A DNA stretch of 63,836 nucleotides, filler included, from Octopus bimaculoides (GCF_001194135.2; 8 parts of 6 records of this genome joined end to end with filler, not necessarily neighbours in it), one strand, 5' to 3'. Shown: positions 31 through 35,075, counted from the whole stretch's first letter. Numbers and translations: made by a program. The notes: generated by a model from the sequence alone, not told the origin.

Positions 31-270
31 AAAGTGAAAGGGATACAGTGAACCTATTGTGAGGAGTGGAATATCTAACATTTCGGATTTAATCATTCAA
101 CAGGGAGCATTGTAAAAAAGAGACGATAAAGAGGAAAAATCAAACAGTGTTTACATCCTCTGAACTTGAAATACTGGCTAGAACTCGTAATGGACGCAGA
201 ATAACATGTACTGCTAACGTGAAACAGAAGTTATAGAGTGGGCGTGCAAAAAGAAGGAAAAGAATGACTT
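31..270 (-). repeat. Inverted pseudo-LTR copy of 1335-1570
   Basis: Reverse complement aligns over about 240 bp with 1335-1570 (shared acttctgtttcacgttagcag, gttattctgcgtc, gatattccactcctcac). Confidence 0.85.
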
Positions 271-299
271 TATTTCATTTGTTAACACCGTTCACCCAC

Positions 300-1260
300 C
301 CTTGGAATCCACCCCATCATATCTGATATTCCTGTTTGCTTTCTGGACATCTCCCTCAAAATATACAATACCCCCACTCTCCGCCTGTGTCTACTAGAAA
401 CCAACTGACTGCAGCTCCTACCTCCACTAGTGTTCCTCTCACCCCACACAAATTAAATCTGCCATACATTTCTCTCAGTTTTCTTCGCCTTCGACGAATT
501 TGCTGCATCAATTCGGATTTGGAATCCCATTGCAAAATGATGGGACAGTTTTTTTTCTAAATCTTTAGTAGCCTCCATCAGTTGTTGACCGGGCACTCCA
601 CCGAGCTCGAGGCATCAACCGCCCCCGGCTATCCTACTATCTTCATGCAATTCCACCGACCGTATTCCACTCTCTCTCTCACTTATTACCCGTCCATCCT
701 CCCTCGAAAGGATCAACTCACCCACAACTTTCGCATTCTTCTTTCTGACCCCCCCCCCNNNNNNNNNNAAGATAGGAGCCTTAGAAATTCCTTGTTAGTA
801 GCTTCACAGCTTCCAGCTCCGCAAAACCAGGAACCTTTTAATGTTCTATCAGACGATGTAACACATAACACTACATAAAAATATAACCACCATCAGGGGG
901 ACCGAGAAGCAATATTACATAACATAACACAATACTTCTGTTGCACTTCGGCGGATCTCATATATTGTATCATATGCAAACTTTGCGGTGCTGTTTACAT
1001 TGGAGAATCAGGGCGGCACCTTGGGGATTGCTTTCGCGAACACATCAGAAGCATAATGCTACGTATGCCAGGCCAACGTTTCTTTTCCCACTTAAACACT
1101 GTGCATCATTCTATTGCACATTCATCAGTGTGTGGCATGGCCATGCACCACGGACCCCCCTTCTCTAGGAAACGAAAGGATCAACGTGTCATATTTGATG
1201 CTGGCACTATGTCCCCAACATTTATGAATGAACGCTTTTCCTGTCATCTTTTCATCTCCT
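300..1260 (+). mobile_element. Penelope-like element remnant: RT C-terminal/linker region plus GIY-YIG endonuclease
   Basis: Frame from 936 reads FCCTSADLIYCIICKLCGAVYIGESGRHLGDCFREHIRSI...SRKRKDQRVIFDAGTMSPTFMNERFS. Upstream frames give FLRLRRICCINSDLESHCKMMGQFF and LTYYPSILPRKDQLTHNFRILLSDP. Confidence 0.85.
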
Positions 1261-1334
1261 CAATTCTTTTTGAACTATTTTATCACCCTCTCTCTGCAAC
1301 ATTCCCGTATTTACTTACTTCGACTCTCACCATC

Positions 1335-1570
1335 ATCCTTGTCCTTCTCCTTTCTATACGCCCTCTCTTATTACTTCTGTTTCACGTTAGCAGCCTGTGT
1401 TATTCTGCGTCTATTATCAGTTGTAGCCAGTTTTTCATGCTGAGAGGACATAAACTCTGTTTAACTTTTTTCTCTTTATCTTCTCTTTTTCTTTACCCCA
1501 TGACGAAGGATTGAATCTGAAAGGTTGGATATTCCACTCCTCACGGCAAGTTCACTGTACCTCTTTCAAT
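1335..1570 (+). repeat. 3' pseudo-LTR of the Penelope-like element, with a degenerate hammerhead at 1497-1528
   Basis: Lies directly after the GIY-YIG ORF. Contains atgacga-agga-ttgaa-tct-gaaa; the inverted homologue is at 31-270. Confidence 0.75.
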
Positions 1571-2361
1571 TTTTTCTACATTTTTTCCAAGTCTTGCCGA
1601 CGAAGAGCCACTAGCTTATTGCTTCATATATATACACACTCACACACACACACATATATATATATATATATATATATATATANNNNNNNNNNNNNNNNNN
1701 NNNNNNNNNNNNNNNNNNNNNNNNNNNNNNNNNNNNNNNNNNNNNNNNNNNNNNNNNNNNNNNNNNNNNNNNNNNNNNNNNNNNNNNNNNNNNNNNNNNN
1801 NNNNNNNNNNNNNNNNNNNNNNNNNNNNNNNNNNNNNNNNNNNNNNNNNNNNNNNNNNNNNNNNNNNNNNNNNNNNNNNNNNNNNNNNNNNNNNNNNNNN
1901 NNNNNNNNNNNNNNNNNNNNNNNNNNNNNNNNNNNNNNNNNNNNNNNNNNNNNNNNNNNNNNNNNNNNNNNNNNNNNNNNNNNNNNNNNNNNNNNNNNNN
2001 NNNNNNNNNNNNNNNNNNNNNNNNNNNNNNNNNNNNNNNNNNNNNNNNNNNNNNNNNNNNNNNNNNNNNNNNNNNNNNNNNNNNNNNNNNNNNNNNNNNN
2101 NNNNNNNNNNNNNNNNNNNNNNNNNNNNNNNNNNNNNNNNNNNNNNNNNNNNNNNNNNNNNNNNNNNNNNNNNNNNNNNNNNNNNNNNNNNNNNNNNNNN
2201 NNNNNNNNNNNNNNNNNNNNNNNNNNNNNNNNNNNNNNNNNNNNNNNNNNNNNNNNNNNNNNNNNNNNNNNNNNNNNNNNNNNNNNNNNNNNNNNNNNNN
2301 NNNNNNNNNNNNNNNNNNNNNNNNNNNNNNNNNNNNNNNNNNNNNNNNNNNNNNNNNNNNN

Positions 2362-2855
2362 GTTTGTTAATAAATGTGGGAGTGAAAGTGTTGATGAACA
2401 AGACCTGAAAGAATATAGTGAATGGTAAAAACCGGATAATTGATTGAGGGTGGAGTTGAGAGGTGGTGTGGTGTTTAAGGAGTGTTTTATGAAGGGCTTG
2501 TGAAAGTGAAATCCTGCTCGTTCCATTTGAATAGTTGACCTTTCGTGAAAAATATAATGGTCAGATGTTCTTCAAATGCACTTAATTTCATAAAGAGATT
2601 CTTCAGTAATCTTCTATGTTAAAATGAGTTTACGTGTTTGTCGGAAAGGGGTGATAAGGAGGTGTAAGTTACATGTCTTTTGATAAAAAGGGGATGATAG
2701 CAGAGAGAAAAATATATAAGATTAGTTTTGGAATGTTTAGAAACCTCACTACCTCGCACCTCTACCCTCAATCGATTATCTTGTTTTTACCATTCCGTCT
2801 TTTCTTTCTGCTCTTGTGTTTGTCGGCACTCTTTCACCCCCATGCTTATTAACAA
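2362..2855. repeat. Diverged inverted repeat pair (about 2362-2477 vs 2737-2855), probably retroelement-derived
   Basis: The reverse complement of the left arm, ccctcaatcaattatccggtttttaccattc...ttattaac, matches the right arm ccctcaatcgattatcttgtttttaccattc...ttattaac. Confidence 0.7.
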
Positions 2856-32905: not shown

Positions 32906-32919
32906 TTGTTATATTTCGG

Positions 32920-33963
32920 GATGGTAATTTCTTTGACAAATAAACACATGCACAGTGTATTCGTTCTTCACTCGTTTATTATTGTTCTTATTTTATCTTA
33001 TGTCCATTGTCTGGAAATCCTTCACCATATGTGACCTCTTCAGCACCCCTTTCTATCCCTCTGCTCCGCTTAGTCCATTCTGTCCTATGATGTGTATCCA
33101 TATCTGCATATGCATTTGCGTCTGTATTTGTGTGTGTGTGTGTGTGATAGTGCGTGTGTGTGTGCGTGCGTGTGTCTATATATTTTGCCTGTGTGCTTGT
33201 ATGTGTATATATGGCCTCACTTACTACAGTCCTTGTATCCGTGCTCTTTATATGGTTGTTTTTACCGTTATTGTCGTTGTTCTTAGTGGTACCAATACTT
33301 GGTATTTTGACCCTCCCCTCGCCTACATTTTCTCTGCTGCTGCTGCTGCTCTTGATCTTTCTTTTGATGTTCTTATATCTTCTGTATTTGTGTGTTCGTT
33401 CATGTTGCTGCCATTGTGGTTGTTGTTGTTGTTACAATTGTTGTTGTTGTTGCTGCAGCCGTGCCCTTTATGCAGTTGTACTTACAGTATGTATGTATAT
33501 GGGTTTTCTTACTATATCGTTTGCTTCTGTGTCTTTTATATAGTTTCTATTTACTTATTTATCTCTATTTCTTGTATTTCATCCTAAGCATGTGCATGTT
33601 TGTCTTTTGTGTGTGTGTGTATTACATTGTTTGTATGTGTGTCTTTTTTCTTCCCACTGTTGCGTGGGTTGGCGGTGGGAGTATTACTGTTCCATTCATG
33701 TTTTCTGTTGAGGATCGGTCTGTCTGTTATTATTTGCGTGGCCTCTGTAATCTAAGTGCCGCTTCTGTTCTATGCGTTGATAATACTTTAACCTCTATAT
33801 TATTTATCGAACTCTATGTTCTACTTGAGCATGTCCGTAGAGCACTGACGAGCTTTCCTTCTATTTGAGCCCTTGCCTGTCCACGCCTATGCTACGGGCC
33901 GGGCCGTCTCCCCAATGTAAGTTGCTGTGTTGTTTCTGCACCGTCCCGTAGTACACCGTAAGC
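32920..33963 (-). mobile_element. Penelope-like 3' end (GIY-YIG C-terminal half plus pLTR with a deleted HHR core at about 33011-33045)
   Basis: LRCTTGRCRNNTATYIGETARPVA; the pLTR is homologous to 8280-9840 and 34200-34720. Confidence 0.8.
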
Positions 33964-34182
33964 ATGTTCGTTGAAGCCACTGCTGTTGCGAACTAGCATA
34001 CCTTTCTAGAAAAGCATTAGATGACATAAATTTACAGATTAAAGCAGTAGAACGGCCAGGCATCCCCATAAAATCTGTGATGCGTAGAACTTATCCTTTC
34101 GATAAGTCCCCATGTACGGAGAACAATTGTATAGTATGTAGGGTAAACACACAGGTTAGCTGTAAGATTAGGAATGTAGTCT
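33962..34182 (+). mobile_element. Inverted fragment of the same Penelope ORF (linker preceding GIY-YIG)
   Basis: MFVEAT..ELAYLSRKALDDINLQIKAVERPGIPIKSVMRRTYPFDKSPCTENNCIVCRVNTQVSCKIRNVV, homologous to the 56651-57235 ORF. Confidence 0.85.
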
Positions 34183-34199
34183 CTAAGACGAGGAATGTA

Positions 34200-34720
34200 G
34201 TCAACAACACACAGACAGAAAGATACAAGAACAATATCAAAATAAGAGTCAAAAGTAGCAACAGCAACAGTAAAGAAAATGTTGGTAAAGGGCGGATCAA
34301 CATACCAAGTATAAGTACAACTATATAAAGGGCACGGATACAAACTGTGTAGCGGGCAAGCCCATATACATATACGTAAGCACAAAAGCAAAGCATATAG
34401 ACACACGTGAGCAACGCACGGGCGCGTGCACACACACACACACACACACACACACACACACACACACACACACACACACACACACACACACACACACACA
34501 CACACACACACACACACAAATACAGATGCAAAACACGTGTGCAGATAAGGATACACATCGTAGAAGGGCAGAATGGACTAGGCGGAGCAGGAGGATGGGA
34601 CGCTGAAGAAGTCACAGATGTATGACGAAAGATTTCCAGACAATGGACATAAGATAAAATAAAAACAATAATAAACGAGTGAAGAACGAATATATAGTGC
34701 ATGTTTTTACATTAGGAATC
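34200..34720 (+). repeat. pLTR copy with (CA)n and a hammerhead-like core at 34596-34639
   Basis: CTGAAGA-a-gtca-cagatgta-tgac-GAAA; flanks match 9720-9810 and 32940-33010 (reverse complement). Confidence 0.75.
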
Positions 34721-34776
34721 TTGCAAAACAAATTAATAAACGAATATATATATATATATATATATATATATATATA

Positions 34777-35075
34777 ACGTGTTTCGTTTGTTGCTTAGAT
34801 ACACATTAATGCAATAAAATTGCATTATGAATTTGAAAAAGTAAAAATCTTCGTCAGGGCTAACATACTTAACAGTAAAGAATTTGCACCTCTAAACGGG
34901 TGAACTGTGACTATCCCCTGTCCAGTGGAGTTCAAAAATCAACCTCTAACTATGACTTTACCTTCGTAACAGTCTATTTTAGCCCTGACTAAGATTTTTG
35001 GGTTTTCAAATTCATAATACAATTTAATTTCATTAATATGAATCTAAGCAAGAAACCAAAACACGTATAGGCAAC
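34777..35075. repeat. Inverted repeat (arms about 34777-34880 and 34957-35066) with hammerhead-like cores facing outward
   Basis: (-) atgttagcc-CTGACGA...GAAACacgt; (+) agcc-CTGACtA...aAAAC-acgt-aTA-ggcaacat. Confidence 0.85.

Follow-up and report, generated by a model that had tools for sequence, protein, structure and literature searches.

Pairs of hammerhead ribozyme (HHR) motifs that point outward on opposite strands recur in a stretch of Octopus bimaculoides DNA, which raises the question of what kind of event leaves two inverted, ribozyme-bearing arms at one site. The stretch (here called the window; 63,836 nucleotides from GCF_001194135.2, made of 8 parts of 6 records joined with filler) is repeat-rich animal DNA that includes 10,624 N. 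A preliminary description reported five such pairs, designated here L1–L5 in positional order along the window, and explained them as one continuum of products of Penelope-like elements (PLEs), formed when 5′-truncated cDNA folds back and recopies its own 3′ end. Our analysis retains the PLE origin, most likely through one insertion per locus, and does not retain recopying as the established route. With a probability of roughly 75%, each locus is a single old PLE insertion, in which an inverted second copy of the 3′ end was made at insertion. The short palindromes are likely the cases in which both copies were reduced to stumps.

All five outward-facing pairs were recovered at their reported positions by self-BLAST (E values 1e-26 to 1e-84): L1 at 32–267/1333–1571 (1e-49), L2 at 3988–4335 (9e-84), L3 at 25018–25191 (3e-26), L4 at 32941–33128/34519–34709 (2e-48) and L5 at 34777–35066 (9e-33). 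An inverted, 5′-truncated copy joined head to head is present in 5/5 loci. Pairwise alignment gave arms of 70–240 nt each, with identities over aligned columns of 81, 83, 88, 88 and 87% for L1–L5, the value for L3 referring to the core and falling to 78% once the distal part is added. Because arm identity is just 81–88%, the loci are considered old. The families differ in sequence, as had been claimed, with no BLAST similarity among them.

The unmirrored centers of L1–L5 measure ~1065, 2, 18, 790 and 115 nt. At the three short loci, the inner arm ends lie ~6, 20 and 27–30 nt upstream of the HHR core. The loops of 2 nt at L2 (4161–4162) and 18 nt at L3 (25102–25119) agree with the preliminary description, and the center of L5 (34864–34978) is ~115 nt instead of the ~75 nt given there. 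Of the reported spacer range of 2 nt to 1.5 kb, the lower end stands; the longest unmirrored center is ~1065 nt, and 1.5 kb is the distance from ribozyme to ribozyme. Two further probable outward pairs lie near these loci, L6 (4680–5123) and L7 (2364–2855).

Remains of a PLE-type reverse transcriptase (RT) followed by a GIY-YIG endonuclease (EN) were found at L4, by tblastn with an Octopus vulgaris protein, and at L1, by Atlas clusters; L2, L3 and L5 have no open reading frame (ORF). The left arm of L4 (32904–33410, minus strand) consists of a 37-nt tail (32904–32940), an HHR (33011–33043) and 3′ untranslated region (UTR). It is followed by piece B (33411–33961, minus strand), which contains the GIY-YIG start and 3′ UTR and has no counterpart on the right side, and by piece A (33963–34197, plus strand), an RT-EN linker with a cysteine cluster that ends in a 21-nt tandem duplication. 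The right arm (34200–34709, plus strand) has no tail, and its HHR (34603–34636) retains both boxes alongside a helix II of 4 bp. The inverted GIY-YIG reported between the arms does exist as the minus-strand GIY-YIG/3′ piece, with the correction that a plus-strand zinc-linker piece adjoins it head to head.

An unpaired relative of the L4 family (56020–57985, minus strand) provides the reference order of RT, linker, EN start, HHR (56151–56178) and tail; further relatives lie at 8200–9846 and 36853–38022 (plus strand). The ORF at 56654–57331 is 75% identical to an 803-aa protein annotated in its source as an Octopus vulgaris RT-domain protein (P0001; 1 match among 104 candidates). Residues 712–779 of P0001 correspond to the plus-strand linker piece of L4, and those from 778 onward to the minus-strand piece. 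On the relative (56560–57010), pieces A and B abut within ~4 nt (reference 66–289, then from 292–293). In this family the GIY-YIG start is preceded by a cysteine cluster, which may point to a Neptune/Nematis-type PLE. A metagenome scan yielded two short loci from 168 candidate stretches: L001, a relative of the L4 clade, and L002, which ends before the HHR region. No Pfam match at cut-off was obtained for the window pieces, P0001 or L001; below cut-off, P0001 matched RVT_1 (E = 0.004) and L001 matched GIY-YIG (E = 0.02).

A tail of 30–40 bp at one end was found in 2/5 loci: one of 37 nt at L4, which two other copies confirm, and one of 32 nt at L3, with partial confirmation. The 37-nt extension of L4 is present on the left arm and in the two other family copies, and is absent from the right arm. 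In 3/3 matched segments, the two arms of L4 resemble each other more than either resembles the copy at 8200–9846 (91, 86 and 86% arm to arm; 84–86, 73–77 and 71–74% against the third copy), as the preliminary description had proposed for arms that are not independent insertions. Two side observations concern this family. In L001, a clean HHR (1677–1722) lies 170 nt behind the ORF and is followed by (TA)n; in the copy at 8200–9846, a ~16-nt minisatellite whose unit resembles the pre-core sequence is expanded at 8812–9697, directly upstream of the HHR (9698).

L1 has the published shape of a truncated element with an inverted partner. Its inverted arm (32–267, minus strand) is a 5′-truncated 3′-end copy with a decayed HHR-like motif at ~75–103, and abuts (TA)n at its outer end. 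The main body (268–1332, plus strand) is a broken PLE ORF with 3′ UTR and a GIY-YIG piece at ~930–1250. The direct arm (1333–1571, extended to ~1625, plus strand) contains a decayed HHR-like motif at ~1501–1528. The broken ORF begins abruptly at ~268, and its last 240 nt are mirrored at 32–267; a central palindrome was looked for at this junction, and none was found. The one-sided extension to ~1625 adjoins (TA)n and, lacking a third copy for comparison, is only a candidate tail. No target-site duplication (TSD) is readable at L1, because both ends touch (TA)n.

Of the RT-GIY-YIG remnant reported between the arms of L1, the GIY-YIG piece was supported. Of its top three Atlas clusters at the 0.95 level, two contain GIY-YIG, in 24% and 51% of their members, and the piece groups with eukaryotic GIY-YIG clusters. 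Its Pfam GIY-YIG score (E = 0.17) is below cut-off, and a homologue search with the piece gave 0 matches among 18 candidates. The RT part has no Pfam match; a stretch upstream of the GIY-YIG piece is putatively RT-thumb-like, judging from its motif.

L3 lacks an ORF, and partial evidence supports a tail and a candidate TSD around its hairpin. On the left, a candidate TSD copy (24888–24894) and a 32-nt one-sided tail (24895–24926, minus strand) precede the left arm (24927–25101, minus strand; HHR 25047–25080). The right arm (25120–25313, plus strand) is followed by the second candidate TSD copy (25314–25320). Both arms are longer than first described, and the left extends 32 nt beyond the right. 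That this extension is a tail is partly demonstrated by a contig from another locus of the same species, which matches the right arm to 25288 and then the opposite strand of the left arm, and by the loose ends of dispersed copies, which carry on as the left arm does among the contigs listed (the survey used an 80% threshold, and gives pieces for 8 of ~69 contigs). The 7-mer taken as a candidate TSD, the only one found at the five loci, lies directly outside the right arm end and 32 nt past the mirrored end of the left arm; the chance of such a match is 0.008 with the ends fixed beforehand, and 0.17 over the whole search box.

L3 is old: organism B, a related organism, contains the entire locus uninterrupted, and differs from it at 53 positions over ~1050 nt. 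A single contig of organism D, another related organism, carries a rearranged version (window 25046–25165), in which 66 nt at the center correspond to the left arm and the loop in flipped orientation, with 3 differences, and ~55 nt are missing. The GAAA box of L3 (25058) is broken in the window and intact in organisms B and D. The right HHR (25139–25164) has a C3 to U change and a 10-nt deletion across the cleavage site. Among the listed contigs, those from other loci contain one arm only (25030–25101; 25102–25165; 25243–25294), and the L3 locus itself is the only one that spans the palindrome. Part of the distal arm is a dispersed repeat, with a summed contig depth of 133 vs 5.4 for the locus.

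Ten arms had been described as hammerheads. L2-right passes the full descriptor unchanged (1/10), both core boxes are intact by eye in 3/10 (L2-right, L4-right and L5-left), and the others are mostly decayed. The right arm of L2 (4163–4335, plus strand; HHR 4193–4265) has intact boxes, a 5-bp helix I, a 54-nt helix II insert and a palindromic helix III, and is the only arm in which a palindromic helix III, an NUH site, the boxes and helices I and II are all found. Its predicted pairing is 0.88–0.98 in helix I and at least 0.98 in helix II, yet the z score is only −2.2. In the left arm (3988–4160, minus strand; HHR 4058–4133), the GAAA box is changed to GGAA. A strict descriptor matched the window 4 times (L2-right without change, L2-left with a single change, L6, and a match that is probably due to chance), and a relaxed descriptor gave 9, compared with 1–5 in 6 shuffles, so single decayed motifs do not exceed chance alone. 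No HHR reached the Rfam gathering score in the window, and none was among the best 150 of 281 matches with E up to 10, which consisted of microsatellite noise.

The best evidence for the putative HHRs comes from comparison within the L4 clade. There, 5 window copies and the metagenome locus L001 all have the motif behind the ORF, and in this set (with L001 misregistered by one column) 3/5 helix II pairs changed on both sides. Only 1/500 shuffles scored as high, and slid controls scored lower.

The left arm of L5 (34777–34863, minus strand) contains an HHR-like core (34851–34857), a 74-nt insert and a GAAA box, and is cut off at the cleavage site by (TA)n; beyond the unmirrored center, both boxes of the right arm (34979–35075, plus strand) are mutated. 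The L5 hairpin fold has z = −12.8, with 0/100 shuffles equal to it. For L2 and L5, the HHR motif is the feature that points to PLEs, and their assignment is partly supported. L6 is a minus-strand unit of which only the 3′ end recurs in inverted form (mirror 5055–5123), and its HHR boxes are intact (4748–4834). L7 is a probable outward pair (2364–2478 minus, 2737–2855 plus) of what are presumably PLE endonuclease ends, judging from a motif.

Several HHR-like sequences are noted separately. In three unrelated motifs the boxes are separated by 54, 68 and 74 nt (4193–4265, plus; 4748–4834, minus; 34777–34857, minus, in L2, L6 and L5, respectively), more than in the variants described in the papers cited below. 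Each has an 8-nt near-palindromic helix III, and only L2-right folds as expected; Lunse et al. 2017 reportedly may already cover such long-loop variants. Each L2 arm contains a second CUGAUGA-like box ~20 nt beyond the cleavage site (4285–4300, plus; mirror ~4030–4040, minus), for which no GAAA partner was found. A motif at 35960–36040 (minus) has the helix III sequence of L2, and faces outward from a PLE HHR at 37937–37975 (plus), a U3-A8 variant; these two (~36020/37937) are non-homologous, and look like a chance outward pair. A decayed motif with a palindromic helix III is present in two copies of another repeat (55455–55525, plus; 38622–38693).

The main features of these loci have precedents in PLEs. 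Inverted partners, head-to-head palindromes and opposite-strand HHR pairs are already published, as is the occurrence of inverted pseudo-long terminal repeats (pLTRs) in Penelope insertions, which the preliminary description had stated correctly (PMC3846280, PMC4209133, PMC8557442; comparisons here and below refer to the accessible parts of the cited papers). Arkhipova et al. 2013 described PLE copies that have inverted pLTRs on either side, together with a TSD and a tail; for head-to-head palindromes they proposed self-priming (PMC3846280). Craig et al. 2021 found the inverted 5′-truncated copy to be frequent, with a 30–40-bp tail and a microsatellite bias, and regarded the mechanism that makes the inverted partner as still open (PMC8557442). 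With endonuclease-containing PLE insertions (PMC3846280, PMC8557442) our loci share the head-to-head inverted copy by the 5′ end, the palindromic junction, the tail at one end, the microsatellite flanks and, at L1 and L4, the RT-linker-GIY-YIG order. They differ in that no tandem direct pLTR is present, L2, L3 and L5 have no ORF, and L4 contains opposed adjacent ORF pieces. Window self-BLAST revealed no full ORF preceded by a tandem pLTR in direct orientation; since all five loci are truncated, this argues against intact elements and not against a PLE origin.

Cervera 2014 described minimal HHR pairs ~100–700 bp apart on opposite strands, with low activity except in dimers (PMC4209133). The window motifs share with these the CUGANGA and GAAA boxes, the short helix I, the extra base before helix II, the palindromic helix III, the U3-A8 variant (37939) and the opposite-strand pairing at ~100–700 bp. 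They differ in having 54–74 nt between boxes at L2, L5 and L6, compared with a helix II of 7–8 bp, and in that most cores are mutated. Non-LTR retrozymes (Cervera and de la Pena 2020, PMC7229834; Li et al. 2026, 10.64898/2026.07.22.740005) are likewise non-coding, HHR-bearing and PLE-related. Unlike our loci, which have one outward HHR per strand, they are head-to-tail tandems with at least two same-strand HHRs that excise circles. The accessible parts of PMC6962438, PMC6431247, PMC8969392 and PMC10085705 contain nothing that alters this picture. A literature search, with Repbase, Dfam and subscription journals outside its range, found no study centered on cephalopod PLE hairpins that lack an ORF, nor one on PLE twin priming, and the L2-type pattern of outward HHR pairs gave 0 matches in viral contigs.

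Scans of orientation and spacer length covered the 64-kb window rather than the whole genome. All 7 same-family, PLE-marked neighbor pairs face outward in an orientation-blind self-BLAST, in keeping with the recurrent architecture that had been claimed. Several observations, however, weigh against single PLE insertions as their source. Inverted neighbors are not rare: for three abundant repeats resembling short interspersed elements (SINE-like repeats), 5/8 neighbor pairs are inverted, with sense direction left aside and 2 further pairs excluded as split matches of one copy. Inversion per se therefore means little, and the weight rests on the 6/7 paired families that have just two arms within the window (L6 adds two weak low-complexity matches of 28–40 nt). 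The comparison of the L4 arms used a single close outgroup copy, and these arms may have been homogenised after insertion. The candidate TSD of L3 is only 7 nt long and was found post hoc; none of the listed contigs connects the distal part of L3 with the HHR part, and the intervening stretch (25176–25211) has single-locus depth. No exact TSD of at least 6 nt was found at L2, L4 or L5, and L2 and L5 also lack an ORF and a third window copy. Helix II of L5 is noncanonical (z = 0.37 and −1.42), and, L2-right aside, none of the 8 isolated HHR-like stretches that were folded clearly outscores its own shuffles.

These points leave room for other origins. Each pair could consist of two independent same-family insertions placed head to head, aided by a preference for (TA)n or for their own copies; PLE remains are dense, the non-homologous pair at ~36020/37937 shows that HHRs can come to face outward, the SINE-like control is compatible with it, and it may apply to the right arm of L4. 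As a general account it is very unlikely, given the 6/7 families with two arms in 64 kb, the mirroring of L2 and L3 to within 2 and 18 nt, the single candidate TSD that encloses both L3 arms, and the L4 arms being each other's closest copies. We give least credence to an origin of the mirrors after insertion, through host DNA repair or fold-back during replication acting on single PLE stumps: the mirroring stops where the element does, without extending into host DNA on either side, and the tail asymmetry is that of PLE insertion products, even if L3 was rearranged after insertion in one lineage, as the organism D contig would imply if correct. A further proposal is that L2, L3 and L5 move as units, either as miniature inverted-repeat transposable elements (MITEs) of DNA-transposon type that captured an HHR, or as hairpin retro-elements that spread whole. 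Long inverted arms, the absence of an ORF, the candidate TSD at L3 and the dispersal of part of its distal arm agree with this. It is nevertheless unlikely, with L3 ends that are asymmetric by 32 nt and listed L3 matches from other loci that are one-armed. A comparison with MITEs in general runs along similar lines: shortness, lack of coding sequence, inverted arms and a candidate TSD (at L3) are shared, and what differs is that the arms here meet centrally, the two ends do not match in length, HHR motifs occur, and each of the other listed copies has a single arm. The suggestion of a class of MITE-like hairpins therefore holds in so far as such short hairpins can be PLE ends, as the one-sided tail and candidate TSD of L3 indicate; a spreading class finds no support among the listed contigs from other loci, which match one L3 arm only.

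For a single PLE insertion per locus, two routes to the second arm were weighed. In the one originally proposed, the same nascent cDNA folds back, or changes template to its own strand, so that its 3′ end is copied a second time; the loop would be the interval between stop and repriming. The mirroring of L2 and L3 up to loops of 2 and 18 nt and the published proposal of self-priming (PMC3846280) speak for it, and L4 could be a long fold-back that later lost piece B on the right, partial arm loss being seen at L3 in the organism D contig. We hold this route to be possible and somewhat doubtful. It needs a 1065-nt loop at L1, with an abrupt junction and no central palindrome, and a separate step for a second arm that ends a tail-length short. 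Simple recopying also fails to give the center of L4, because piece B, which adjoins piece A on the relative, has no mirror on the right. The alternative, priming from both target ends, predicts the same junctions, fits the tails and the L4 center at least as well, and could well be correct. It is favored because the tails, variable spacers and L4 center need no extra steps, and because another PLE protein extends both strands in vitro: Frangieh 2024 reported cleavage and extension of both target strands, with two start sites bounding the tail, in an activity independent of HHR cleavage (PMC11167929). The near-perfect center of L2 fits either route, and sequence alone cannot separate the two.

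In two-ended priming, the endonuclease would nick both target strands, and both target 3′ ends would prime reverse transcription close to the RNA's 3′ end. Two start sites 30–40 nt apart on the element RNA would account for the one-sided tail. Each cDNA would halt at its own point before the two join head to head, so that the spacer would equal their difference in length, and the copies would then have decayed after insertion.

Twin-priming 5′ inversions are known from the L1 retrotransposon, which is distinct from our locus L1. The center of locus L4 resembles them in joining two adjacent, non-overlapping element parts head to head, and differs in that piece A is followed by another 3′-end copy and not by target DNA. 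Because of this adjoining copy, a later deletion in one arm explains the locus equally; the L4 center fits either twin-priming-type synthesis or a long palindrome with later partial arm loss. It is a speculative further step to regard the loci as a record of two-ended (twin) priming by PLEs in a living genome, comprising ORF-less one-tailed hairpins and the L4 inversion, and the long-loop HHRs of L2, L5 and L6 as an undescribed variant.

The arms had also been proposed as a source of double-stranded and circular RNA. Retrozyme circles arise from tandem HHRs (PMC7229834; 10.64898/2026.07.22.740005). Every locus here has one HHR per strand, with its own antisense arm upstream, and no tandem same-strand HHRs were encountered. 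In predictions for the full hairpins, ribozyme-helix pairing at L2 and L3 drops to 0.0, and the minimum-energy fold of L4 has its right arm paired with its left. RNA read through such a locus would fold into a long, imperfect hairpin and thereby prevent the ribozyme from forming; with one HHR per strand, predicted to be buried in this way, circles are unlikely. Imperfect double-stranded RNA upon read-through is possible. No RNA depth was observed over L3 (24816–25463) in 12.9 million reads (~6% of one library); 7 reads were placed, all <90% alike and none over the arms.

Other repeats in the window were noted in passing. A repeat of uncertain family (43990–44473) combines an inverted part (43990–44068) with direct parts (44045–44137, 44383–44473), and no convincing HHR was seen in it. 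Two inverted repeats without HHR lie at 63258–63413 and 48485–48901; one is a MITE-like element with 38-bp arms, the other consists of two copies of an abundant SINE-like repeat in opposite orientations. An identical short AT palindrome between N runs (4420–4432, 38255–38266, 55909–55920, 61940–61952) is probably a scaffolding marker, not genome.

For annotation, short HHR-centered hairpins in this genome are to be read as Penelope stumps, not as MITEs or microRNA-like genes. The tail and candidate TSD of L3, the center of L4 and the long-loop HHRs are the parts of most value for follow-up. Junctions of the L3 and L4 types are countable genome-wide, and their numbers could separate fold-back from two-ended priming. 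If transcribed through, the hairpins could supply double-stranded RNA for editing.

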